Source: Candidatus Omnitrophota bacterium
Lineage (GTDB): Bacteria > Omnitrophota > Gorgyraeia > Pluralincolimonadales > Pluralincolimonadaceae
Assembly (NCBI GenBank): GCA_028716565.1
Contig: JAQUPL010000002.1
Span: 194,989 to 258,988 of the forward strand
Direction of reading: 5' to 3'
DNA: 64,000 nucleotides
This document shows, piece after piece, positions 48,837 through 62,976 of this stretch (position 1 is the first letter of the stretch; each line of letters opens with the position of its first letter). The notes beneath the pieces are model-generated. The model was not told where the DNA came from, ran no database searches, and was given only the letters and a program-made list of their open reading frames with translations. Made by a program: the position numbers and the translations under genes.

Positions 48837-49922
48837 GTGCCTGAAGCGGGTTCTTCAATACATAAGACCCTCAAAGAGATCGCGCAATTAATAGACGGCG
48901 AGGTTATAGGCGACGGGAATGTCGTCATAACCGGGATAAGCGGGATAAGGGAAGCGGAAGAAGGGGACCTGACATTCCTCGCTAACCCGCGCTATGCTCC
49001 TCTGATGGATACGACTAGGGCGTCGGCGATCATAACCTCCCGGGAGACGAAGACCGCTCCCAGGCCGATGATCCGCGCGGATAACCCCTCTATGGCGTTT
49101 GCCAAGGTGATCTCCATCCTTATGCCGAACGACCAGAAGTATCCCGTCGGTATACATCCTGCCGCGGTGGTCGGGAAGAACGTAAAACTCGGGCAGGATG
49201 TCGCGCTCCAGCCGTACGTCGTGATCGACGACGACGCCGCTATAGGGGACAGGACTATAATTTACGCCGGCAGTTATATCGGCAATCGCGCGAAGATAGG
49301 AAGCGACTGCCTGATCTATCCGAACGTCGCGATACGCGATAAGGTCGAGATAGGGAACAGGGTGATAATCCATTCCGGCACGGTCATAGGCAGCGACGGG
49401 TTCGGGTTCGCGACGGTCGGCGGAGAGCATCACAAAATACCCCAGATCGGAACGGTCCTTATCGAGGACGACGTAGAGATAGGCGCCAATGTCACTATCG
49501 ACAGGGCGCGGTTCGGGAAGACTGTGATAGGGAAGGGCACCAAGGTAGACAACCTTGTCCAGATAGCCCATAACGTCATAGTCGGAGAGAATTCCATAAT
49601 AATAGCGCAGGCCGGAATATCCGGTTCGACGGTCATAGGCAAGAACGTCACGATCGCCGGCCAGGCGGGCCTGGTCGGACATATAACGATCGGGGATAAT
49701 GCCGTGCTGGCTGCGCAGGCCGGTGTCACGAAGTCGGTCCCGGCGAATACATGTGTCTCGGGATACCCCGCAAGGCGGCACGATGAGGCGAAGAGGCTGA
49801 ATGCCTTTGTCACGCGCCTGCCGCAGATCGTCGATGAACTGAAAAAACTCGAAGAAAAATTTCAACAGTTGGAGAAGAAGATAGCAGATGGAACAACAGC
49901 TGACAATAAAAAACGCGGTTGA
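48837..49922 (+). CDS. lpxD: UDP-3-O-acylglucosamine N-acyltransferase
   Basis: LpxD N-terminal domain plus hexapeptide repeats. Confidence 0.9.
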
Positions 49923-51219
49923 AACCGAAGGGACCGGCCTGCATACAGGGACGAAGGTGAAAATGCGCCTTTTGCCCGCCGAACCTAATTCCGGCATAAG
50001 CTTTATCCGCGTAGACCTTCCGGATTCGCCGGTGATAAAAGCGAATACCGCCAATGTCATGGAATCCAGCCGCAAACTGAGGAGGACATCGCTTTCATGC
50101 AACGGCGTAGAAGTCCATACGGTGGAGCACCTGCTGTCGGCGCTCAGCGGGATGATGATAGACAATATCAAGGTCGAGATAAACGGCCCCGAGCTTCCCG
50201 GTTTCGACGGTTCCGCGATGCCGTTTGTCGAGCTGATAAAGAAAGCAGGCGCGCAGTCGCAGCCGGAACAGAAAAGGACCTTTACGGTAAAAGACCCGAT
50301 CTGGCTCGAGGAGAACGATACGGTCCTGGCCATACTTCCCGATTCCGAATTAAAGATATCTTATATGTTGAGCTACGACCACCCGTTGCTCAGGTCCCAG
50401 TACGTCTCGGTCGTGATAACGCCTGAGACTTATGAGAAAGAGATAGCCCCGACGAGGACATTCTGCCTGGAGGCCGAGGCCGAGGAGCTGAGACGGCAGG
50501 GGCTGGGCAAAGGCGCGAACTTCGAAAACACCCTCGTTGTCGGCAAGGACGGCGTCATAAAGAATAAATTAAGGTTTAGCGATGAGTTCGCGCGCCACAA
50601 AGTCTCGGACCTTATGGGAGACCTTTACCTTTTGGGCATGCCCTTAAAAGGCCATGTGATAGCCGTAAAATCCGGGCATCCGCTCAACGTCAGGCTTTTA
50701 CAGAAGATAAGGCAGCAGCAGGAGCGCATGCGCGCCGGCGCCATGGAAAGCAAAGGCCCCGGCATCGTTGGCACTCCCCTCGATATCAACGATATAAAGA
50801 AGATACTGCCTCACCGTTACCCGTTCCTGTTGGTTGACAGGGTCATAGAACTCGAGGACGACAAGAGAGCGGTGGGCATAAAGAACGTCACGATGAACGA
50901 ATTTTATTTCCCGGGTCATTTTCCGAACATGCCGATAATGCCCGGAGTGCTCATAATGGAAGCGCTGGCGCAGGTCGCCGGCGTGATGATGCTCAACAAA
51001 AGGGAAAATCTCGGGAAATACGCTTTCTTCATGTCGATGGACAAGGTAAAATTCCGTAAAGCGGTCGTGCCCGGGGACCAGCTTGTCCTTGAGACCGAGG
51101 TGCTGAAACTGCGCTCCAAGACCGTCCAGGTGAAGGCTGTCGCGAGCGTCGACGGGAAAATTGTGGCCGAAGGCGAATTCATGTTCGCCCTGGTCGGCGG
51201 TGAAGAGGCTTCGGAATAA
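49888..51219 (+). CDS. lpxC-fabZ: Bifunctional UDP-3-O-acyl-N-acetylglucosamine deacetylase / 3-hydroxyacyl-ACP dehydratase (LpxC-FabZ fusion)
   Basis: LpxC N-terminal part (TGLHTG...ISF, HTVEHLL...). The C-terminal ~150 aa are a hotdog FabZ domain ([13 protein letters not shown]...FPGHFP...PGVL). Confidence 0.9.
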
Positions 51220-51274
51220 GGGGATGAACCCCGCATATACGTGTGGGGTATCAATAGAAAAGTGAAGGTGCAGG

Positions 51275-52045
51275 GTGCAAATCCACTCTACAGCGATCGT
51301 AGATAAAAAGGCAGAGTTGGCCGACGGAGTTGAAGTCGGCCCTTATTGTATAATCGGTCCGGACGTCAAGATCGGCAGCGGAACCGTAATAGGCGCGCAC
51401 GCCGTGATCGACGGGCACACGACTATCGGCCGCGATAACAGGATATTCACCGGGGCCGTGATAGGCTCCATCACGCAGGACCTGAAATTCAAGGGCGAAA
51501 AAAGTTACGTCAAGATAGGCGACAACAATATCATTCGCGAATACGTTACCGTAAATATGGGAACGAACAAAGAGTCCTCCACCGTGATAGGCAATAAGGT
51601 CCTTTTGATGGCATATTGCCATGTGGCGCACGACTGCGTCATAAAAGACGGGGCAATCATCGCCAATTGCGGCACGTTCGCCGGTTATGTCACCGTCGAG
51701 GAGAAGGCCGATATCGGGGGCCTTACCGGCGTCCACCAGTTCGTTCGCATAGGAAAGCTCGCTATCATAGGCGGCTGTTCGAAAGTCACGCAGGACGTGG
51801 TGCCTTATTCGATGAGCGACGGCCATCCGCTGAAAGTATACGGCCTCAATACCGTCGGGCTCGAAAGGGCCGACGTCCCCCAGGCATCGCGGAATTCCCT
51901 TAAAAAAGCTTTCAAGATACTCTTTAATTCGGGGCTTACCGTCCCTCATGCGCTGGACGAGATAAAGTCGGAAGTCCCGGAATGCCCCGAAGTAGACTAC
52001 CTTATAGATTTCACGGCTGCCTCTGAACGGGGCATCTCAAGATAA
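51275..52045 (+). CDS. lpxA: Acyl-ACP--UDP-N-acetylglucosamine O-acyltransferase
   Basis: Hexapeptide-repeat protein with an LpxA-type C-terminal helical domain; GTG start. Confidence 0.9.
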   Translation: MQIHSTAIVDKKAELADGVEVGPYCIIGPDVKIGSGTVIGAHAVIDGHTTIGRDNRIFTGAVIGSITQDLKFKGEKSYVKIGDNNIIREYVTVNMGTNKESSTVIGNKVLLMAYCHVAHDCVIKDGAIIANCGTFAGYVTVEEKADIGGLTGVHQFVRIGKLAIIGGCSKVTQDVVPYSMSDGHPLKVYGLNTVGLERADVPQASRNSLKKAFKILFNSGLTVPHALDEIKSEVPECPEVDYLIDFTAASERGISR

Positions 52046-52051
52046 AATAAT

Positions 52052-52861
52052 ATGGACACCATAGGACTTATCGCGGGTAAAAGCGATTTTCCGCTGCTTT
52101 TCGCCAAAGCAGCGAGATCGAAAGGCGTGAAGGTTATCGCCGTGGGCATCGAGGGCGAGACCAGGCCCGAGGTGGAAAAGCTCGTCGACAAATTTTACTG
52201 GGTAAAACTCGGCGAACTCTCCAAGGTGCTCGAGGTCTTCAAGGCCGAAGGCGTCAAAAAAGCCGTGATGGCCGGCGGGGTCACTAAATCCAGGATATTC
52301 AACGAAGCGCTGAAGATCGACGGGTTGATGAAATCGATCCTTGTCAGGGCTCTGGACAAAAAAGACGATACCCTGTTATCGATGATCACCGCAACGCTGA
52401 AATCGGCCGGCATAGACCTGCTGGATTCGACGCTTTTCCTCGAGGACCTGCTGCCGGCAGAAGGCGTGCCGACGAAGGCGAAACCGGCACTTTCGCAAGA
52501 GGAGGATATCAGGTTCGGCGCGAGGGTCGCGAGGGAAGTGGCCGGCCTGGATATAGGGCTTTCGATATTCGTAAAAGATAAGGCCGTAATAGCGGTCGAG
52601 GATATTGAGGGGACCGACGCTATGATAAGACGCGGCGGACGGCTTGCCGGCGCGGGCGGAGTCATAATAAAAGTCGCGCGACCGAAGCAGAATATGAAAT
52701 TCGACATCCCGGTCATAGGGCCTCAGACTATACGTTCGATGGTTGAGGTGAAGGCGGCCTGCCTCGCGATAGAGGCAAAGAAGACGCTTATAATAGATAA
52801 AGAAGAAACGATCGCTCTCGCGGACAATAATGGTATTTCCATAATAGCGGTAAAAATGTGA
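52052..52861 (+). CDS. lpxI: UDP-2,3-diacylglucosamine hydrolase LpxI (DUF1009 family)
   Basis: N-terminus MDTIGLIAGKSDFP is typical of LpxI and the gene sits in the lpx cluster. Confidence 0.7.
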   Translation: MDTIGLIAGKSDFPLLFAKAARSKGVKVIAVGIEGETRPEVEKLVDKFYWVKLGELSKVLEVFKAEGVKKAVMAGGVTKSRIFNEALKIDGLMKSILVRALDKKDDTLLSMITATLKSAGIDLLDSTLFLEDLLPAEGVPTKAKPALSQEEDIRFGARVAREVAGLDIGLSIFVKDKAVIAVEDIEGTDAMIRRGGRLAGAGGVIIKVARPKQNMKFDIPVIGPQTIRSMVEVKAACLAIEAKKTLIIDKEETIALADNNGISIIAVKM

Positions 52862-53538
52862 GCGGTATCCTTATATTAGGCATAGAGGACGAAGGCCTTA
52901 AGCGCGCCAAAAAAGCGCTGAAAGACGCTGATCACCAGGTCTATTCCTGCGATGAGGCCGATATAAAACCGGTCTACGAAGAGACGCTGAAGAGGCGGCC
53001 GGATGTCATAGTCCTCGATTTCGCCTCCCCCAAGAATTTCGATGCGCAGGCTGTCCTGCGCGCCTTCAAGAAAGACAGGTTCCTGAAAGATACTCCTGTC
53101 TTTGCCGTCCTGCCTGAAGACGGGATGCGGCTTCTCGATAACCTTTCAGGCATCGGCGATTTCATAATTGCCCCGTTTAACGGCGCAGAGCTTGTAGCGC
53201 GCGTCAAGGCGCTCCTCAAAAAAGTCATACCGACCGATTCCGATGACATGATAAAGATAAGCGACCTAATCATAGATGTATCAAGATACGAAGTGTCATT
53301 GAACGGCAGCAAGGTGGAGCTCACGTTCAAAGAATACGAACTCCTTAAATTCCTCGCCTCAAACAAAGGCCGCGTCTATTCCCGGGACCAGCTGCTCGAC
53401 AAGATCTGGGGATACGATTACTACGGCGGTACCCGCACGGTGGATGTCCATATCCGCCGCCTCCGCAGCAAGATAGAGGACCGGAAGCATACCTTTATCG
53501 AGACCATCCGCAACATCGGCTACAAATTCATCGCTTAA
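52858..53538 (+). CDS. Orphan OmpR-family response regulator with a degenerate receiver domain; candidate GlnR-like nitrogen regulator
   Basis: C-terminal winged-helix trans_reg_C domain (LTFKEYELLKFLASNKGRVYSRDQLLDKIWGYDYYGGTRTVDVHIRRLR). In the receiver domain the conserved KPF lysine is APF, the conserved Thr is Leu, and the N-terminal acidic pair is E-D; the phospho-acceptor Asp is retained (VIVLDF). No histidine kinase is adjacent. GTG start overlaps the lpxI stop. Confidence 0.8.
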   Translation: MSGILILGIEDEGLKRAKKALKDADHQVYSCDEADIKPVYEETLKRRPDVIVLDFASPKNFDAQAVLRAFKKDRFLKDTPVFAVLPEDGMRLLDNLSGIGDFIIAPFNGAELVARVKALLKKVIPTDSDDMIKISDLIIDVSRYEVSLNGSKVELTFKEYELLKFLASNKGRVYSRDQLLDKIWGYDYYGGTRTVDVHIRRLRSKIEDRKHTFIETIRNIGYKFIA

Positions 53539-53557
53539 TCCCGTAACCTGCTTTTTA

Positions 53558-53658
53558 CCTTGAAATTTAAGCCTCGCTCGGCCTTTCTTTATTACTCGCC
53601 TCTGCCAAATATCTACTGCGTCATAAACCGGCTCTTTGCGAGGCGTTAAATTTCAAGG
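53558..53658 (+). repeat. ~100-nt palindromic intergenic repeat element, copy A, with 11-bp perfect terminal inverted repeats CCTTGAAATTT / AAATTTCAAGG
   Basis: About 80% identical to the reverse complement of 61090..61188. Conserved internal blocks are CGGCCTTTCTTTATTACTCG and ACTGCGTCATAAACCGGCTCTT. The inner stem is GCCTCGC/GCGAGGC. Confidence 0.5.
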
Positions 53659-53678
53659 CATGACACCCGCATGCAAGA

Positions 53679-53731
53679 TTAACCAAGATTTAACGCGCAT
53701 GTAATACGGATTTAACATTCGCCCGTATACT
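53679..53731 (+). promoter_or_regulatory. Four half-sites (TTAAC, TTAAC, GTAAT, TTAAC) phased at exactly 11 bp (53679, 53690, 53701, 53712), then a TATACT -10 element at 53726..53731, just upstream of the rubredoxin-like/porin/amt operon
   Basis: Direct-repeat architecture ending 9 bp upstream of the -10 with no -35, typical of OmpR/PhoB/GlnR-class activator sites. The 13-mer GGATTTAACATTC recurs identically at the glnA promoter. Confidence 0.45.
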
Positions 53732-53738
53732 TACGGGT

Positions 53739-53921
53739 ATGAAGATCAAAGAAGATGATCTTGAGCGGAAGTACAGGTGCGCAAAGTGCGGCTACTTAAC
53801 GCAGCGGCAGGCGCCCCCCAGGAGCTGTCCGATATGCAGGGCCGGCTCCGAAGCTTTTGACGACATCGGTGTCGACAGGTCAACGGAGAAAAGGGCGGTC
53901 TTTAATCCAAGATTAATATAG
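53739..53921 (+). CDS. Small rubredoxin-like zinc-ribbon protein
   Basis: CAKCGY...CPICRAG, i.e. CxxC-N17-CxxC. The start codon lies 7 nt after the -10 element, so the transcript may be leaderless. Small ORF, moderate support. Confidence 0.4.
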   Translation: MKIKEDDLERKYRCAKCGYLTQRQAPPRSCPICRAGSEAFDDIGVDRSTEKRAVFNPRLI

Positions 53922-53992
53922 GGTTAATCTGTTTGTAACATTGATAGTTATACTTGTTTGGTGAGAACATTGGGAGAAAGAGAGAAGATCAG

Positions 53993-54784
53993 ATGTTCCG
54001 TCAAAACGTTTGGCTGGTCATATGTATCATAGGCGCGCTTTCCTTAATTACCCCCGCGGCCTGTTTCGCGACCGCAACCACCCACATCTGGGCGCCATCC
54101 ACTGACGTCCAGGCGTACGGAGTCGTCCACATAACCCCGGGAGACGTGTATATTCCCGTAAACAAGGACAAATTCGGGAACAGGGTCAACGTAATAACTA
54201 ACGAAGGGCTCACAGTCGGTGTTTTGCCTTTCGAGAAATTCAACATTGAGGTAGGTTTCGACAACAAGACAGGGTACGGGGAGCTGGACAATTACCCGAT
54301 ATATTTTAACGCAAAAGGTGGGATACCTGAAGGTGCGTTCGGTGAATGGTTCCCCGCCCTGGCTGTTGGCGCTTATGATATAGGGACGAAGGCTGACAAG
54401 ACCAATAGCAACGTGCTCTACTTCAAAGGCGCAAAGACATTCAAAATTAATGATTTCAACCTCGGCCGTCTCTCAGTCGGATATTTTAACGGCAACGGCA
54501 AATTGTTACGGGGTCCGAACGGCGGAAAAGACAACGCCGACGTCTTCGGCGCCTGGGAGCGCACGATGTCAGAGATATCGGACAAGCTCTGGCTTTGCGT
54601 TGAATACCAGGGGACGAAGAGCTCCTACGGTTGCTGGAATTTCGGCGGGTCATGGAAATTCTCGGATAATGTCTCGCTGCTCGTAGGGTTCGATCATTAC
54701 AACAACAGAAACTTTGCTGATACGGTTACAGTACAAGTCGATATAGATTTCGACGCGTTCAGCAATCTGTTCAAGAAGAAATAG
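53993..54784 (+). CDS. Outer-membrane beta-barrel protein, probable porin, encoded upstream of amt
   Basis: Signal peptide (MFRQNVWLVICIIGALSLITPAACFA), alternating amphipathic beta-strand pattern and C-terminal Phe-containing strands. The track start at 53954 is a TTG. Confidence 0.55.
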   Translation: MFRQNVWLVICIIGALSLITPAACFATATTHIWAPSTDVQAYGVVHITPGDVYIPVNKDKFGNRVNVITNEGLTVGVLPFEKFNIEVGFDNKTGYGELDNYPIYFNAKGGIPEGAFGEWFPALAVGAYDIGTKADKTNSNVLYFKGAKTFKINDFNLGRLSVGYFNGNGKLLRGPNGGKDNADVFGAWERTMSEISDKLWLCVEYQGTKSSYGCWNFGGSWKFSDNVSLLVGFDHYNNRNFADTVTVQVDIDFDAFSNLFKKK

Positions 54785-54793
54785 AGGTGACCC

Positions 54794-56161
54794 ATGTTTA
54801 AGAAAATAACGGCTTTTCTCGCGATATTCACGATAACGATAGGAGTGTCCTGCCTGGCGTTTGCCCAGGATCCCAGCGGCGCGGAGACGCTGGCGCAGAA
54901 CCCGAACTCTCCGGTCGATTACGTATGGGTGCTCGTCTGCGGCTTCCTGGTATTCTTCATGCAGGCCGGGTTTGCGATGGTGGAGGCCGGTTTCTGCAGG
55001 GCCAAGAACGCCACAAACCTCATGGCAAAGAACACTATAGACTTTGTCACTGCGTCGCTTATTTTCATGGCTTTTGGCTTCGCCTTCATGATGGGAAATG
55101 ACTACAACGGCATCATAGGTACTTCCGGATGGTTTCTTCACGGCCCGAACTATGATGTCGGAAGATACCTCCTGTTCTTCTGGCAGTTGGTATTTGCCGG
55201 GACCGCAGCTACGATAGTCTCCGGAGCTATCGCGGAAAGGCTGAAATTTAAAGCCTATTTCCTTTACAGTATCATGGTCACGGCCGTTATATATCCAATA
55301 TATGGGCATTGGGTATGGGGTGGAGGATGGCTTTCCAAACTGCCTTTTGGGATCGGTCATGTTGATTTTGCCGGCTCCGGAGTTGTCCATGCGATAGGCG
55401 GTTTTGTAGGTCTTGCGGGTGCCATGGTCCTCGGGCCGCGTTTCGGAAAATTCAACAAGGAAAGAAAGCCAAGGGCTATACCGGGCCACAGCATAACCCT
55501 CGCCGCGCTAGGCACTTTTATCCTCTGGTTCGGATGGTTTGGGTTCAATCCCGGATCGACTTTTTCCGCTCACCAGCTCAGGATAGCGGTGATAGCCGTC
55601 AACACCAATCTCGCCGCAGCGGCCGGCGCGGCAGTTGCAATATTGCTTGTTTTCATGAAGACGAAGAAATGGGATGTCGGCATGATGCTTAACGGTTGCC
55701 TTGCAGGCCTTGTCGCTGTTACCGCACCCTGCGCTTGGATCGAGGCGTGGGCCGCGGTTGTCATAGGTGCCATCGCCGGAACGATTGTAGTCGTCGGCGT
55801 CTATTTCTGGGAGAACCGCGGTGTGGATGATCCGGTAGGCGCTGTCAGCGTCCACGGGTTAAACGGTGTCTGGGGCTTGATAAGCGTCGGGCTGTTTGCC
55901 GACGGAACATACGGTCTGGGTTCTACTTCAGCGCCTTTCGTAAAGGGCCTGTTCTATGGTGGCGGGTACGGCCAGCTGATAGCCCAGCTGATAGGCGCTG
56001 CCGTATGCGTTTCATGGGCGTTCATATTGGGCTTTATCGGGTTCAAATTGATGGATAGGTTATTCGGCATAAGAGTTTCGCCGCAGGAGGAACTCAAGGG
56101 CTTGGATATTCCTGAGCACGGGACGCCCGCTTATCCCAATTTCTATACGTATAGTAATTAG
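54794..56161 (+). CDS. amt: Ammonium transporter (Amt family) with cleavable signal peptide
   Basis: Amt signature regions (DFAGSGVVH, GFNPGS); 455 aa. Confidence 0.9.
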   Translation: MFKKITAFLAIFTITIGVSCLAFAQDPSGAETLAQNPNSPVDYVWVLVCGFLVFFMQAGFAMVEAGFCRAKNATNLMAKNTIDFVTASLIFMAFGFAFMMGNDYNGIIGTSGWFLHGPNYDVGRYLLFFWQLVFAGTAATIVSGAIAERLKFKAYFLYSIMVTAVIYPIYGHWVWGGGWLSKLPFGIGHVDFAGSGVVHAIGGFVGLAGAMVLGPRFGKFNKERKPRAIPGHSITLAALGTFILWFGWFGFNPGSTFSAHQLRIAVIAVNTNLAAAAGAAVAILLVFMKTKKWDVGMMLNGCLAGLVAVTAPCAWIEAWAAVVIGAIAGTIVVVGVYFWENRGVDDPVGAVSVHGLNGVWGLISVGLFADGTYGLGSTSAPFVKGLFYGGGYGQLIAQLIGAAVCVSWAFILGFIGFKLMDRLFGIRVSPQEELKGLDIPEHGTPAYPNFYTYSN

Positions 56162-56175
56162 AGAGGGACAAAAAG

Positions 56176-56514
56176 ATGAAGAAGATAGAAGCGGTTGTCC
56201 GCATAGAAAAACTGGAAGAGATCACTGAGGCCCTGGATAAGTTCGGTTATCCCGGAATGATGGTCACTCATATAGAGGGGCATGGCCGCCAGAAAGGGCT
56301 CGCGGAGCAGTTCAGGGGAAGGGAGTATAAGGTAAATTTCCTTCCTAAGATAAAGATCGAGATCGTGGTCAAGGATTCCGATGTCGAGAAGCTGGTCAAG
56401 GCGATAACCGGTATCGCGAGGACCGGCGAGATCGGAGACGGAAAGATATTCATATATGCCGTCGAAGATACAGTCAGGATACGCACCGGTGAAAAAGGCG
56501 AAAGCGCTATATAG
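56176..56514 (+). CDS. glnK: Nitrogen regulatory protein P-II
   Basis: MKKIEAVVR...GRQKG...T-loop RGREYKV; no conserved Tyr51 equivalent is obvious, though the T-loop is present. 112 aa, adjacent to amt. Confidence 0.9.
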   Translation: MKKIEAVVRIEKLEEITEALDKFGYPGMMVTHIEGHGRQKGLAEQFRGREYKVNFLPKIKIEIVVKDSDVEKLVKAITGIARTGEIGDGKIFIYAVEDTVRIRTGEKGESAI

Positions 56515-56517
56515 GCC

Positions 56518-56697
56518 ATGGTTGATAAAGAATTGATAGAGAAGATCCGCAGGCTGAAGGAGGACAGGGGCTATACTCTCTATGATCTGGCGAAAAGGGT
56601 CGACATTCAGCCGTCGACCCTTGAGCGCTGGTTCAAGACAAACCGCATAAACAGGATTTATGCCGAGACGGTAAGGGTGAGGCTGGGGATCAAGTAA
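56518..56697 (+). CDS. 59-aa helix-turn-helix protein between glnK-1 and amt-2
   Basis: MVDKELIEKIRRLKEDRGYTLYDLAKRVDIQPSTLERWFKTNR...; YTLYDLAKRVDIQPSTLERW is a classic HTH. It starts 4 nt after the glnK stop and is not in the ORF track (under 60 aa). Confidence 0.45.
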   Translation: MVDKELIEKIRRLKEDRGYTLYDLAKRVDIQPSTLERWFKTNRINRIYAETVRVRLGIK

Positions 56698-56759
56698 TTT
56701 TTTGTCGCTATTATCCCAATTGGTTACTCAGTTTGCTAAGCAAAAGAGAGGAGACGAAA

Positions 56760-58097
56760 ATGGTAAAAATTATGAAGAGCCTGCCGTTCTGGTTCTTCGC
56801 CGCTTTCCTGTTTTTTACAGTGATCGCGACAGTTGTCGCGGCCGAGGAAGTAGCGCCTGCGGTGAAAGTCGACTCGGGCGATACGGCGTGGCTCCTTATG
56901 TCAGCTGCGCTGGTATTATTGATGACACCTGCCCTGGCATTTTTCTACGGCGGCCTCGTGCGAAGGAAGAATGTGCTTTCGATCCTGATGCAGTGTTTTA
57001 TGGTGATGTGCCTGATAACAATCCAGTGGGTACTTTTTGGCTATAGCCTCGCATTCGGTCCGGATGTCAAAGGCGTCATCGGGAGCCTGGCGTGGTTCGG
57101 GTTAAAAGGCGTGGGCCTCGACCCCAATCCGGCGTATGCCGCCACGGTCCCCCACCAGGCGTTCATGATATTCCAGGGTATGTTCGCTATCATCACACCT
57201 GCCTTGATATTGGGCGCGTTCGCCGAGAGGATGAAGTTCTCGACGTTCTGCGTATTTGCGCTTGTATGGGCGACTCTTGTATATGATCCGGTCTGCCATT
57301 GGATCTGGGGTGTCGGCGGTTTCCTGAGGGCCGACGGGGCGCTTGATTTCGCGGGAGGCACGGTCGTCCACATCAATGCCGGCGTCGCAGCCCTGGCGAG
57401 CGCCCTGGTATTGGGAAAACGCAAAGGATACCCGGACAAGATATCGCCTCCGCATAACCTTCCGTTCGCGGTATTGGGCGCGGGGTTATTGTGGTTCGGG
57501 TGGTTCGGGTTCAACTCAGGCAGTGCCTTAGGCTCGGGCAGCCTGGCGACTAGCGCTTTCGTGGTTACCCACATAGGAGCCGCCTCGGCCGGACTTACGT
57601 GGGCGCTTCTGGATTGGATATTCAGTTCCCGTTCGACGGTATTGGGTATTATTACCGGCGCCGTCGCCGGACTTGTCGCGATAACCCCGGCTTCGGGTTT
57701 TGTGAACCCGGTCGGAGCGATATGGATAGGCATCGGCGTATCGGTCTTTTGCTATATGGCCGTCGCATTACTCAAGGTGAAATTCGGTTACGACGATTCC
57801 CTTGACGCTTTCGGTGTCCACGGGATCGGCGGCATGTGGGGAGCCCTGGCGACAGGCCTCTGGGCAACGAAGGCCGTAAACGCGTCCGGGAATAACGGGT
57901 TCTTCTACGGGAACCCGGCGCAATTCTTGATACAGTTCAAGGCTGTTATTATTACCGCGGTCTATTCGTTCGTCATGACCTTTGTGATACTTAAGGCGCT
58001 TAACGCGGTGATGGGCGTGCGCGCCTCCGAGCAGGATGAGCGCATCGGCCTGGACCTCACACAACATCGCGAAGCCGGATATACGGTATTGGACTAA
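56760..58097 (+). CDS. amt: Ammonium transporter (second copy)
   Basis: Start set at the ATG at 56760, which follows the RBS AGAGAGGAG; the track ORF begins at a TTG at 56733. Signal peptide plus Amt core. Confidence 0.9.
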   Translation: MVKIMKSLPFWFFAAFLFFTVIATVVAAEEVAPAVKVDSGDTAWLLMSAALVLLMTPALAFFYGGLVRRKNVLSILMQCFMVMCLITIQWVLFGYSLAFGPDVKGVIGSLAWFGLKGVGLDPNPAYAATVPHQAFMIFQGMFAIITPALILGAFAERMKFSTFCVFALVWATLVYDPVCHWIWGVGGFLRADGALDFAGGTVVHINAGVAALASALVLGKRKGYPDKISPPHNLPFAVLGAGLLWFGWFGFNSGSALGSGSLATSAFVVTHIGAASAGLTWALLDWIFSSRSTVLGIITGAVAGLVAITPASGFVNPVGAIWIGIGVSVFCYMAVALLKVKFGYDDSLDAFGVHGIGGMWGALATGLWATKAVNASGNNGFFYGNPAQFLIQFKAVIITAVYSFVMTFVILKALNAVMGVRASEQDERIGLDLTQHREAGYTVLD

Positions 58098-58105
58098 CAG
58101 GGAGA

Positions 58106-58453
58106 ATGAAAATGAAATATATTATCGCGATAATCCAGCCTGACAGGCTCGATGAGGTACTGGCAAAGTTGGAAGAAAAAGAGATACACCTGGTCACCGT
58201 GACCGGAGTTATGGGCCGCGGCCGCCAAAAAGGCATCTCCGAGGTCTACAGGAGCCATAAGGAGGCGGGAAGCCTGCTTAAAAAGGTCAAGCTCGAGATA
58301 GCCGTAAACGACGATTTCGTCAAGCCCGCGGTGGAAGCGATAAAGTCCGGCGCCCACACCGGCCACATCGGGGACGGGAAGATATTTATTCTCGATTTGC
58401 CGGAATGTATTCGGATACGTACAGGCGAGAAAGGAAATCCCGCAATCGGATAG
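58106..58453 (+). CDS. glnK: Nitrogen regulatory protein P-II (second copy)
   Basis: P-II fold with T-loop RGRQKGISEVYRSHK; 115 aa. Confidence 0.9.
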   Translation: MKMKYIIAIIQPDRLDEVLAKLEEKEIHLVTVTGVMGRGRQKGISEVYRSHKEAGSLLKKVKLEIAVNDDFVKPAVEAIKSGAHTGHIGDGKIFILDLPECIRIRTGEKGNPAIG

Positions 58454-58486
58454 GTTTAAGCGGGTGACTGCCGACGGAGCCCTTGG

Positions 58487-58509
58487 CCCTGTTGCCCGAA
58501 GCAACAGGG
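58487..58509 (+). other. Perfect 9-bp stem-loop CCCTGTTGC-CCGAA-GCAACAGGG between glnK-2 and glnA
   Basis: GC-rich hairpin without a following T tract; possibly an RNA processing or pause element. Confidence 0.35.
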
Positions 58510-58570
58510 ACGAGGTGCTCGGCAGGCAGGACCCGCCCTAGCGAACCGATTGTTCGGGAGAGATTAAGAT

Positions 58571-58613
58571 TTAACATTTGCGTAATATGGATTTAACATT
58601 CATTTTGTATACT
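58571..58613 (+). promoter_or_regulatory. Second copy of the phased-repeat activator site (TTAAC 58571, GTAAT 58582, TTAAC 58593) plus a TATACT -10 at 58608..58613, upstream of glnA
   Basis: Same spacing and the same 13-mer GGATTTAACATTC as at 53708..53720; the -10 lies 10 bp after the last half-site. The glnA RBS AAGGGAGG is at 58628..58635. Confidence 0.45.
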
Positions 58614-58644
58614 TTTGGCATAAAAATAAGGGAGGTAAGCCAGC

Positions 58645-60156
58645 ATGAAAGGGAAAGCAGTAAAGAAGGAGATAGTGGAAGTGAAGACGAAGAATCCGCT
58701 CGCGAACGGCTCGTTTGACGACAAGGCCGCGCGAGATGTGATGAAACTCATCAAAGACAAGAAGATCGATATTATCGACCTGAAGTTCAACGACCTGCCG
58801 GGGCTGTGGCAGCATTTCTCGATACCGGCATCCGAACTGCTCGAGATGGACGATATTACCCGTTCCATCTGGGTCGACGGCATCGGGTTTGACGGTTCTT
58901 CGATCCGCGGTTTCCAGAAGATACAGGAATCGGACATGATCATGATACCGGACCCGGCTACGGCGGTCATAGACCCGGTATGCGAAGTCCCGACCTTAAG
59001 CATCATCTGCGACATCTATGACCCGTTGACGCGCAAACCGTACAGCCGCGATCCACGTTATATCGCGAAGAAGGCGGAGAAATATTTGAAGGAGACCGGC
59101 ATTGCCGATTCCGTATATTTCGGGCCCGAAGCCGAATTCTTCATCTTTAACGATATCCGCTTCGACCAGAACGAGAATTCGGGCTACTATTTCATCGACT
59201 CGGTCGAGGGCGACTGGAACACCGGCAAGAAAGAAGACCCGAACCTTGGGTACAAGATACGCTACAAGGAAGGGTATTTCCCTGTCCCGCCGCACGATTC
59301 GCTCCAGGACTTAAGGAGCCGCATAATCCTCAAGATGAAGGAAGCGGGAGTGAACATTGAAGTCCATCATCATGAAGTCGCCACAGCCGGCCAGTGTGAG
59401 ATCGACATAAAGTTCGACAAGCTGACCAAAATGGCCGACAGCCTATTGATGTACAAATACATCATAAAGAACATGGCAAAAAAAGCCGGTATGGTCGCGA
59501 CGTTCATGCCGAAACCGCTCTTCGCGGATAACGGCTCAGGCATGCATTGCCACCAGAGCCTTTGGAAGAACGGCACGAACCTTTTCTTTGACAAGAACGG
59601 CTACGCGCTCTTAAGCCAGACCGCCAAATATTATATCGGCGGACTTTTAAAGCACGCGAACAGCCTCATGGCCTTCTGCGCACCGACGACAAACTCGTAC
59701 AAGAGGCTCGTCCCGGGCTACGAAGCGCCTGTCAACCTCGTCTATTCTGCGCGCAACCGTTCGGCAGCTGTCCGCATCCCGATGTACAGCGACAGCCCGA
59801 AATCCAAGAGGATCGAGTTCAGGCCTCCTGACCCGTCATGCAACGGCTACATCGCCTTCAGCGCAATGCTCATGGCCGGGTTGGACGGTATCATCAACAA
59901 GATAGACCCGGGCAAGCCGAACGACAAGGACCTCTTCGAATTAAGCGAAGAGGAAATGGCTAAAATACCCACGGTCCCGTCGTCTTTGCGCAGGGCTATC
60001 GACGCTTTGGAAGCGGACCACGAGTACCTGCTTAGAGGCGGGGTATTCACCAAGGATGTCATAGACATTTGGCTTGAATACAAGAGGAAGAAAGAGATAG
60101 ATGCCGTGAGAATGCGTCCGCATCCTTACGAGTTCTACCTGTATTTCGATATTTAA
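58645..60156 (+). CDS. glnA: Glutamine synthetase type I-beta
   Basis: Collinear with E. coli GlnA (DIRFD..., [23 protein letters not shown]). It carries a ~30-aa N-terminal extension. The adenylylation-loop Tyr is replaced by Phe ([12 protein letters not shown]). Confidence 0.9.
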
Positions 60157-61257: not shown

Positions 61258-62976
61258 GTGAAAATGGATCCGATCCGCTTTGGCATAGCCCAAATGAACT
61301 CCACCGTGGGTGACCTTCAGGGCAACAAAGAGAAGATAATAAAATTCATAAGTGACGCAAGATCATTGGGTTGCGACATAGTAATCCTCCCGGAGCTCGC
61401 CATAACCGGTTATCCGCCCGAAGACCTCCTCCTTAAGCCCCAGTTTGCGGATGACGCCGTGAAAGCGCTTAACGAAATAGTCCACAAGACCGATAATATA
61501 ATAGTTATAGTGGGTTGCCTCGACAAAGCCAAGGATGGGCTGTACAATTCAGCCGCTCTTATTCGCGACAAGGAACTTATCCACATATACCATAAGATAC
61601 TCCTCCCGAATTATGGCGTATTTGACGAAAAACGCTATTTCAAGCCCGGAAACGAGTCTTTTGCCTTCAAGTTCGAAGGCCTCAAGATCGGGCTGAATAT
61701 CTGCGAGGACATATGGGAATGTTGCGGCCCCGCGAGCTTTGAGGCGGTCGACATGGGCGCGCAGGTCATGATCAATATTTCGGCATCGCCTTACCACGCC
61801 GGCAAGATACAGGCGCGCGAGAAGATGCTTGTGGAGAGGGCCCAGCAGACCGCCGCTATCGTGATCTACGATAACATGGTGGGCGGCCAGGATGAGCTCG
61901 TCTTCGATGGCGGGAGCATGGTTATAGGATGGAAAGGCAGCGTTTTAACGCGCGGAAAGCAGTTCGAAGAGGATATCGCGCTCTTCGACCTCAATCCCGA
62001 AGAATATCTTAAATACAGGAAGGTCCCAAAGAGGAAGCCGGCGGTAAATAATTACAGGGTAAAGGAGTTATCGCTGAAGAGGTGCGAGGTAAAGATAAGG
62101 CCGCCTTTCCCGCCGCGCCGCCTCGAAAAATTAGGCAGCATAGAGGAGATATACAAGGCGCTTGTCCTGGGCACCAGGGATTATATGACGAAGAATGGCT
62201 TCAAGAAAGCGGTCGTCGGCGTAAGCGGGGGGATAGATTCGGCCTTGACCGCGTGCATAGCCGTCGACGCGCTCGGAAAGGATAACGTCGCCGCGGTCAC
62301 GATGCCGTCCATGCATACAAAGGAAGAGACGCGCGTGGACGCCATAGCCGTCGCGAAGAATTTAGGCCTAAAGACGGCGGCCATACCCATAAATACCATC
62401 TACCAGGCATATATGCGTATGCTTAAGAAGGAATTCAAGGACGCCAAGACAGATATAACCGAAGAGAACCTGCAGGCGAGGATCCGCGGCAACATCCTCA
62501 TGGCGCTTTCGAATAAATTCAACTGGCTCGTCCTGACGACCGGGAACAAGAGCGAGATGTCGACGGGTTATTGCACCCTCTACGGCGATATGGCCGGGGG
62601 ATTTGCGGTCATAAAAGATGTATTAAAGACCGTCGTTTACCAGTTGGCAGAATACAGGAACGCGGTAGCCGGCAAGGAGGTCATACCGGTCACGACGATA
62701 AAGAGGGCGCCGACCGCCGAATTGAAACCCAACCAGAAAGACCAGGATACGCTTCCTCCTTACCACGTGCTGGACGATATCCTGAAGTTATATGTCGAAG
62801 AAGACAGGTCGGCGAGCGAGATCATCGCCCAGCGTTTCGACGCGAAGACGGTCAAGAAGGTCATCTCGAGGGTCGACAAGAACGAATATAAGAGGCGCCA
62901 GAGCCCGCCAGGGGTCAAGATAACCCCGAAGGCATTCGGCAAGGACCGCAGGGTCCCAATAACGAACAGATATTAA
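61258..62976 (+). CDS. nadE: Glutamine-dependent NAD+ synthetase (nitrilase domain plus NAD synthetase domain)
   Basis: N-terminal CN-hydrolase domain (IAQMNSTVGD..., ELAITGYPPEDL) and a C-terminal PP-loop (VVGVSGGIDSAL). Confidence 0.9.
   Translation: MKMDPIRFGIAQMNSTVGDLQGNKEKIIKFISDARSLGCDIVILPELAITGYPPEDLLLKPQFADDAVKALNEIVHKTDNIIVIVGCLDKAKDGLYNSAALIRDKELIHIYHKILLPNYGVFDEKRYFKPGNESFAFKFEGLKIGLNICEDIWECCGPASFEAVDMGAQVMINISASPYHAGKIQAREKMLVERAQQTAAIVIYDNMVGGQDELVFDGGSMVIGWKGSVLTRGKQFEEDIALFDLNPEEYLKYRKVPKRKPAVNNYRVKELSLKRCEVKIRPPFPPRRLEKLGSIEEIYKALVLGTRDYMTKNGFKKAVVGVSGGIDSALTACIAVDALGKDNVAAVTMPSMHTKEETRVDAIAVAKNLGLKTAAIPINTIYQAYMRMLKKEFKDAKTDITEENLQARIRGNILMALSNKFNWLVLTTGNKSEMSTGYCTLYGDMAGGFAVIKDVLKTVVYQLAEYRNAVAGKEVIPVTTIKRAPTAELKPNQKDQDTLPPYHVLDDILKLYVEEDRSASEIIAQRFDAKTVKKVISRVDKNEYKRRQSPPGVKITPKAFGKDRRVPITNRY

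Follow-up and report, generated by a model that had tools for sequence, protein, structure and literature searches.

Candidate GlnR-type activator boxes at three nitrogen-assimilation promoters of an uncultured Omnitrophota lineage

How are the genes for ammonium uptake and glutamine synthesis switched on in a bacterium that has not been cultured? The question is raised by a 64-kb stretch of a Candidatus Omnitrophota genome (assembly GCA_028716565.1, contig JAQUPL010000002.1, positions 194,989 to 258,988), referred to below as the window. Its genes of interest follow one another in the order lpxC-fabZ, lpxA, lpxI, regulator, rubredoxin-like, porin-like, amt, glnK, amt, glnK, glnA and nadE, and phased five-nucleotide (5-nt) repeats of the TTAAC type lead up to a TATACT -10 element at three promoters. 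Omnitrophota and most Dehalococcoidia are uncultured, and we know of nothing established about their transcription regulation. Herein, the window repeats are interpreted as GlnR-type activator boxes that substitute for the -35 element and would be bound by the adjacent orphan regulator as a head-to-tail array, an interpretation to which a probability of about 0.8 is assigned.

All elements described here lie on the forward strand. Direct reading of the sequence places box 1, at the promoter of the rubredoxin-like gene, at 53679–53716, with half-sites a1 TTAAC (53679–53683), b1 TTAAC (53690–53694), a2 GTAAT (53701–53705) and b2 TTAAC (53712–53716) at a phase of 11 bp. The -10 element TATACT (53726–53731) begins 9 nt past b2, and both these coordinates and this gap agree with those given in a first-pass annotation of the locus. 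The same arrangement had been described there for glnA, and this was only partly borne out: the coordinates of the half-sites in box 3 (58571–58597; b1 TTAAC 58571–58575, a2 GTAAT 58582–58586, b2 TTAAC 58593–58597) and of TATACT (58608–58613) are correct, but the gap is 10 nt rather than 9, and the in-phase half-sites number three rather than four, position 58560 reading GAGAT. The 13-mer GGATTTAACATTC, which had been noted as common to both promoters, is found at 53708 and 58589 and nowhere else in the window, against 0.10 occurrences expected at ≤1 mismatch. Furthermore, a third promoter of identical design had been overlooked. Its box 2 (53902–53939) precedes the porin-like gene and consists of TTAAT at 53902, TTAAT at 53913, TTAAT at 53924 and GTAAC at 53935, with TATACT at 53949–53954, 9 nt past the final half-site.

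The pattern shared by the three promoters is far above chance. With up to two mismatches, TTAAC-N6-KTAAY-N6-TTAAC yields 6 matches in the 64-kb window against 0.16 expected, all of them inside the three clusters. A position weight matrix trained solely on sites from non-window genomes scores 53.0 at glnA, 48.7 at box 1 and 25.8 at box 2; the next-best score in the 64 kb, 11.6, belongs to a shifted self-overlapping copy, and the maximum over 20 shuffles is 10.3. In addition, the absence of a properly spaced -35 hexamer, claimed earlier for two of these promoters, is upheld at all three: agreement with TTGACA at the presumptive -35 positions is limited to 0–2 of 6 bases (1–2 of 6 at promoter 1), and a generic sigma-70 scan reports no -35/-10 pair ending on any of the three TATACT elements. 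As no extended -10 was found at them either, the poor -35 matches make the three promoters look activator-dependent. Other regulatory signals were also searched for. Between 53500 and 54000 and between 58450 and 58650 there is no match to the sigma-54 (TGGCAC-N5-TTGCW), TnrA (TGTNA-N7-TNACA) or NtcA (GTA-N8-TAC) motifs, and with these motifs absent from the three promoters, NtcA, TnrA and sigma-54/NtrC promoters were ruled out. An Rfam search of 53400–58800 at E≤1 returned no match, and hence no known riboswitch or leader in this interval.

The boxes are conserved in two phyla, in each case together with a regulator gene. In seven related Omnitrophota genomes (L002–L008), in which the regulator is 74–88% identical, a box lies directly behind the regulator gene, and it is repeated ahead of glnA in L003, L004, L005 and L007, where the contig extends that far. 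Half-sites and -10 elements are conserved in these genomes and the spacers are variable; the target gene order of the window is kept in L003–L007, and L008 has one amt-glnK pair. In Omnitrophota, the gap from b2 to TAnnnT is 9 nt at the rubredoxin-like and porin-like promoters and 10 nt at glnA. Box 2 is present only in the window and in L002, L003–L008 having no internal promoter before the porin-like gene. Its first two half-sites (53902–53921) fall within the final codons of the rubredoxin-like gene (NPRLI-stop), where the window reads TTTAATCCAAGATTAATATAG and L003 reads TATAACCCAAGACTGATCTGA, both encoding NPRLI-stop; box 2 appears to have arisen as a regulator box within coding sequence.

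Of 72 further loci, most of them from Chloroflexota and chiefly from Dehalococcoidia, 61 have a homologous regulator gene immediately ahead of amt-glnK-glnA-nadE or of glnA; about 50 Chloroflexota genomes show such an order. The intergenic layout there is GTAAC-N6-TTAAC-N6-GTAAT-N6-G[T/A]AAC followed after 10 nt by TAnnnT, and exactly 10 nt separate b2 from TAnnnT at 45 of 48 Chloroflexota sites. Two additional, independently retrieved Chloroflexota loci also carry boxes with the 10-nt gap, within the order glutamate synthase (GOGAT)-regulator-amt-PII-glnA. In the related loci, 1.26 Mb in total, 112 runs of three phased half-sites were counted against 0.83 in shuffled sequence, and 61 against 0.03 when a TAnnnT 9–10 nt downstream was included; spacers of 4, 5, 7 and 8 nt occurred 3, 1, 4 and 0 times, respectively. 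After collapsing, 63 of 64 sites in this sample point at downstream rubredoxin-like/porin-like, amt or glnA genes, so the motif is not, as the first-pass annotation had allowed for, found mostly outside promoters. A metagenome scan with the pattern GTAAY-N4-GATTTAACA, which has a 7-nt instead of a 6-nt spacer and therefore could not match true sites, serves only as an out-of-phase control and says nothing on the regulon. It gave 114 matches on contigs of 13–52% GC (most below 45%), none of them beside amt, glnK or glnA and two with a TAnnnT at the right distance. As a separate observation, in two Dehalococcoidia loci (L199, 10982–11977; L200, 5977–6990) a gene for an NrpR-like protein (PF08461 and PF01995) adjoins the genes for the GlnR-like regulator and glnA. 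NrpR proteins with these domains are of the archaeal, 2-oxoglutarate-sensing nitrogen repressor type, and judged from gene content, two unrelated nitrogen regulators may act on one cluster in these bacteria.

The distribution of the box within Omnitrophota is narrower. No box was found at five loci that have a glnA 75–87% identical to that of the window but no adjacent OmpR-type regulator (L201–L203 from Omnitrophota or Omnitrophota-like genomes, L204 from Elusimicrobiota, L205 from Syntrophales), which makes the box clade-specific rather than phylum-wide; conservation throughout the phylum was ruled out by these loci and by four others, L195–L198, that also lack it. The no-box loci have features of their own. 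In L201–L203, leaders with repeated hairpin/T-tract terminators precede the porin-like, amt or glnA genes, and a small HTH_8 protein is encoded before gltB (L201 1832–2560 and 5060–5290; L202 4395–5105 and 5105–5415; L203 1655–2062). GAF-ANTAR proteins are encoded in L201, L202 and L204. Such proteins together with such leaders suggest that nitrogen control in the lineages of L201–L203 may proceed via antitermination.

Which protein would read these boxes? The candidate cognate regulator is encoded immediately upstream of box 1 (52858–53538, forward strand, 226 amino acids), a gene that the first-pass annotation had overlooked. Pfam and PDB matches identify it as a GlnR-like member of the OmpR/PhoB family, with a winged-helix DNA-binding domain (DBD) and a degenerate receiver. 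PF00486 is its only Pfam match (E 3.8e-29), with no Response_reg match at E≤0.001. In an alignment with E. coli PhoB, the acidic pair and the aspartate (D54) are kept, the conserved threonine is replaced by leucine, and the conserved lysine is replaced by alanine. Across the regulator family, the acidic-pair, aspartate, threonine and lysine positions all vary, and the DBD is almost invariant. The receiver is atypical, lacking a conserved pocket for phosphorylation, and probably phosphorylation-independent. No histidine kinase gene adjoins the regulator in the 64-kb window or at the other loci for which genes were called, including L195–L200, although one may be encoded elsewhere in the genome; no other OmpR paralog is encoded in the window.

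The relationship to GlnR is apparent at several levels. The closest solved structures are the GlnR entries 8hig, 8hih and 8hml (136.7 bits versus 111.5 for RegX3), and a family profile search also places GlnR on top, the GlnR DBD alone scoring 145 bits versus 109 for VicR and 91 for PhoB. The window protein and the Chloroflexota homologs share all 12 phosphate-contact residues of Saccharopolyspora erythraea GlnR, compared with 9 of 12 in RegX3, and the base-contact residues R186, V190, R193 and R194 are all kept in the window protein, so that every DNA-contact residue is conserved; the base-contact segment reads GGTRTVDVHIRRLR in the window protein and GGTRTVDVHVRRLR in GlnR. RegX3 departs from the GlnR contacts at T149P, R193K, N212G and R186K. 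Homologs of the regulator fall into a nearest tier from Candidatus Omnitrophota (62–92% identity) and a next tier of about 45–55% identity from Chloroflexota, mainly Dehalococcoidia.

The genomic setting of the regulator gene is unusual. It closes the lpxC/fabZ-lpxA-lpxI cluster, overlapping lpxI by 4 nt, and in all Omnitrophota examined it is the final gene of a bamA-ompH-lpxD-lpxC/fabZ-lpxA-lpxI envelope cluster (window 49888–53538, L195, L198). It is odd for a nitrogen regulator to be co-transcribed with lipid A genes, as is apparently the case here. LpxC and FabZ form a single fused protein of 443 amino acids. In a deeper lineage (L196 1787–9642, L197 1109–4902), an ortholog at 69% identity, in which a receiver domain is detectable, precedes an Rrf2 regulator gene. 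Beyond the latter lies an operon for a Nar/Nxr-like molybdopterin oxidoreductase, encoding a NarJ-like chaperone, cytochromes and a Rieske protein, that has a canonical TTGACA-type promoter and not a GlnR-type box.

The structural basis for a mechanism is provided by actinobacterial GlnR (PDB 8HIH, the M. tuberculosis transcription activation complex; PDB 8HML, the S. erythraea DBD on DNA; PMC10235972, PMC10704036, PMC3561978). The actinobacterial GlnR box comprises 5-nt a and b sites (gTnAc and GaAAC) placed 6 nt apart, typically as two boxes and hence four sites; a review gives t/gTAAC-n6-Gc/aAAC as the M. smegmatis consensus, and the DNA crystallized with the DBD, ACGTAACATCGCGGTAACA, reads GTAAC-N6-GTAAC and then A. 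The sites repeat in direct orientation on the coding strand, conservation is stronger for the b repeat, and GlnR can also bind three repeats in a row. The activation complex holds four head-to-tail protomers on a scaffold spanning -64 to +13, protomer I occupying b2, downstream of a non-optimal -35, and contacting sigma region 4 and the beta flap. By analogy, the regulator encoded at 52858–53538 would most likely bind as three to four protomers, head to tail, on [G/T]TAA[C/T] half-sites 11 bp apart. With a transcription start assumed about 7 nt past the -10, these sites would sit at about -60, -49, -38 and -27, which, given such a start, is the layout of the GlnR activation complex. The promoter-proximal protomer would then lie between -35 and -10 and its neighbour would cover the missing -35, and the protomers would jointly recruit RNA polymerase to the TATACT of the three promoters (rubredoxin-like; porin-like-amt-glnK-amt-glnK; glnA). 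Activation would presumably take place under nitrogen scarcity, a signal to be sensed in some manner by the regulator. The class-II activator layout of PhoB, OmpR or GlnR boxes proposed at first pass is therefore supported, and specifically for GlnR, as half-site, spacer, orientation and last-site position all match and the regulator gene adjoins.

Several points weigh against this interpretation and temper it. Deeper Omnitrophota orthologs of the regulator (L195–L198, 62–69% identity) still follow lpxI but have no box downstream, so that the link between regulator and box rests on adjacency in one Omnitrophota clade and in Chloroflexota, and on homology. The DBD is 54% identical to that of GlnR versus 47% to that of RegX3, a moderate margin over actinobacterial-type OmpR regulators. 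In addition, Streptomyces MtrA is reported (PMC9151340) to act as a repressor on these same nitrogen genes, and the boxes could therefore be shared with a second regulator.

Among the other explanations, the one that fares best, though improbable, keeps the adjacent GlnR-like protein as the binder and makes it a repressor of self-sufficient promoters. The proximal half-sites do overlie the -35/spacer region, a position also used by repressors, and actinobacterial GlnR is reported to repress some targets. However, promoters with a TTGACA match of 0–2 of 6 and no extended -10 hardly look self-sufficient. Furthermore, the spacing between the last half-site and the -10 varies by no more than 1 nt across two phyla, which is expected of an activator that, like GlnR in its complex, touches sigma region 4 and the beta flap, and is not needed by a repressor, and the targets are scavenging genes of the kind that GlnR activates in Actinobacteria.

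A different OmpR-family regulator encoded elsewhere, canonically phosphorylated and PhoB/PhoP- or MtrA-like, might instead bind the boxes, which would reduce the adjacent gene to an lpx bystander; this is judged quite unlikely. Such a view would accommodate the position of the adjacent gene at the end of the lpx cluster even in lineages without a box, and the names assigned to its product, PhoP in the Joint Genome Institute (JGI) annotation and PhoB as the best NCBIfam match (equivalog TIGR02154). Streptomyces PhoP, moreover, binds GlnR-regulated promoters, and the reported MtrA repression mentioned above would have a similar bearing. The PhoB model, however, reaches only 144.7 bits, its cutoff being 296.2, which leaves the automated PhoP/PhoB names unsupported; on this score, on the targets (amt, glnK and glnA, not pst/pho genes) and on the half-site [G/T]TAAC, a PhoB identity of the regulator was ruled out. 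Against a regulator encoded elsewhere also stand the second phylum, where the homolog is found directly ahead of amt or glnA at 61 of 72 loci and the same boxes occur, the conservation of all GlnR base and phosphate contacts together with the GTAAC-N6-GTAAC crystal site, and the absence of boxes where the regulator is not adjacent. Hardly credible, finally, is a reading of the repeats as overlapping sigma-70 tandem promoters, in which TTAACA would approximate the -35 TTGACA and TAACAT would fit TAnnnT: the generic scan does report TTAACA-17-TAACAT at 58571–58599, but this fits the glnA site only, would put a2 (GTAAY), among the best-conserved positions, in the spacer, leaves the a1 sites and the strict 6-nt spacer preference unexplained, and fails in Chloroflexota, where most b1 sites read TTAACC and b2 reads G[T/A]AAC.

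The genes behind the boxes are largely those of nitrogen assimilation. The first, at 53739–53921, encodes a 60-amino-acid rubredoxin-like zinc-ribbon protein (PF21349, E 5e-10). ATG 53739 is the sole usable start of this open reading frame and lies 7 nt past the -10, which makes the leaderless mRNA suggested at first pass plausible in the window genome. The layout is restricted to the window and L002, the latter with GTG in place of ATG at the same position, as the orthologs in L003–L008 have a leader of about 25–40 nt with a GGAG Shine-Dalgarno sequence. The second gene encodes a secreted, beta-rich protein of 263 amino acids with a signal peptide (53993–54784, ATG 53993 being the likely start). 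An operon of rubredoxin-like, porin and amt-glnK genes had been proposed; the gene order is correct, but the third promoter at 53902–53954 is internal to it, and the label "porin" is unconfirmed, with no match of the protein in Pfam, NCBIfam or the PDB. It is kept ahead of amt in related Omnitrophota at 47–52% identity and may represent an undescribed family of outer-membrane proteins with a role related to ammonium. Unannotated proteins of 242–272 amino acids without a Pfam match also precede amt in L201, L202 and L204.

The remaining targets are amt (54794–56161, PF00909), glnK (56176–56514, PF00543), a second amt (56733–58097, PF00909), a second glnK (58106–58453, PF00543) and glnA (58645–60156), a type I glutamine synthetase gene by Pfam and TIGR00653 (677.6 bits against a cutoff of 429) with the Shine-Dalgarno sequence GGGAGG ahead. 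The glutamine-dependent NAD synthetase gene nadE follows glnA in the window (61258–62976) and in Omnitrophota and Chloroflexota loci (L003–L007, L010, L015 and others). No box was found ahead of it in the window, and a second, divergent GlnA-like gene (35–40% identity) lies behind nadE in L003–L005 and L007. Between the stop of the second glnK and the glnA box lies a GC-rich imperfect hairpin (58451–58540; minimum free energy -58.1 kcal/mol, z = -6.6), which is present as a single copy in the window, with no Rfam match and no T-tract behind it. A hairpin very similar by eye occurs elsewhere in L002, between the regulator gene and the rubredoxin-like box, and its apical stem carries a compensatory change; a counterpart is absent from L003–L008. 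The element looks like a mobile palindrome of the repetitive extragenic palindrome (REP) or miniature inverted-repeat transposable element (MITE) kind, or an insulator upstream of the boxes.

Altogether, these results bear on how widely a known kind of nitrogen control is distributed. The box had been presented as an undescribed motif for this lineage; it is new to the lineage, but in kind it is the known GlnR box. A 2023 review discusses GlnR as an Actinomycete regulator, and no report of such a system outside Actinobacteria, whether in Chloroflexi, Dehalococcoides or Omnitrophota, was found in the literature searched, which covered few subscription journals. What is apparently new is the occurrence of a GlnR-type regulator and its boxes together in Omnitrophota and Chloroflexota. 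A more far-reaching scenario can be offered only tentatively and with some doubt. GlnR-type nitrogen control might be an old cross-phylum system (Actinobacteria, Chloroflexota and one Omnitrophota clade) whose receiver would have decayed to a phosphorylation-independent nitrogen-reading module and which would have been recently rewired in the Omnitrophota clade. As part of this same scenario, the rewiring would consist of a new internal promoter arising in part from the final codons of the rubredoxin-like gene and the loss of that gene's leader, and the zinc-ribbon and secreted porin-like proteins would have been recruited as first-line regulon members.

The candidate system is of interest in several respects. 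It gives a concrete, testable regulator-operator pair for nitrogen assimilation genes of uncultured lineages, and protein and boxes are suited to heterologous work without culturing the organism. It extends a system presented as actinobacterial in reviews to two further phyla, one of them diderm, and corrects the automated PhoP/PhoB annotation of these regulators. As the DBD is near-invariant and the 10-nt distance to the -10 is fixed across phyla, the four-protomer M. tuberculosis activation complex is suggested to be a general architecture. In addition, how nitrogen is sensed by GlnR-type regulators becomes a sharper question in view of the degenerate receiver.

Comparison with known systems places the locus most closely beside GlnR. 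The cyanobacterial NtcA, the TnrA/GlnR proteins of Firmicutes and the proteobacterial NtrC/sigma-54 system likewise control amt, glnK/glnB and glnA, and NtcA, too, takes the place of the -35, at a constant distance from a TAnnnT -10. They rely, however, on palindromes or on -24/-12 elements, in contrast to the direct repeats found here, and on CRP-, MerR- or AAA+-type regulators. E. coli PhoB is closer in architecture: the 11-bp-phased direct repeats of the pho box stand in for the -35 and stop about 10 bp short of the -10, and PhoB binds them through tandem, head-to-tail winged-helix domains with a class-II-like contact to sigma region 4. The phasing, the replacement of the -35 and the distance of about 10 bp to the -10 are thus shared with the present boxes, and the PhoB DBD structures 1GXP and 3T72 are among the matches of the regulator. 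PhoB nevertheless differs in its half-site (CTGTCAT versus [G/T]TAAC), in its canonical phosphorylated receiver and kinase PhoR, and in serving phosphate genes.

Actinobacterial GlnR, in turn, shares with the candidate system a winged-helix DBD with identical DNA-contact residues, an atypical receiver without the conserved threonine and lysine, and the lack of an adjacent kinase gene. Its operators are likewise 5-nt [G/T]TAAC half-sites at 6-nt spacing, arranged as three to four coding-strand direct repeats per promoter with the last repeat downstream of a weak -35, and its targets are amt-glnK and glnA. The differences lie in the host, here a diderm, uncultured member of Omnitrophota with homologs in Chloroflexota, in the b-sites (TTAAC here and G[T/A]AAC in Chloroflexota, versus GaAAC), and in the receiver, which is more degenerate across the present family, the phospho-acceptor aspartate not being invariant. 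The regulator gene adjoins its putative targets here, whereas S. coelicolor glnR is reported to be a separate PhoP/GlnR target beside glnA and amtB. Sequence identity to GlnR is modest, about 54% in the DBD, and the relation was judged from best-match margins.

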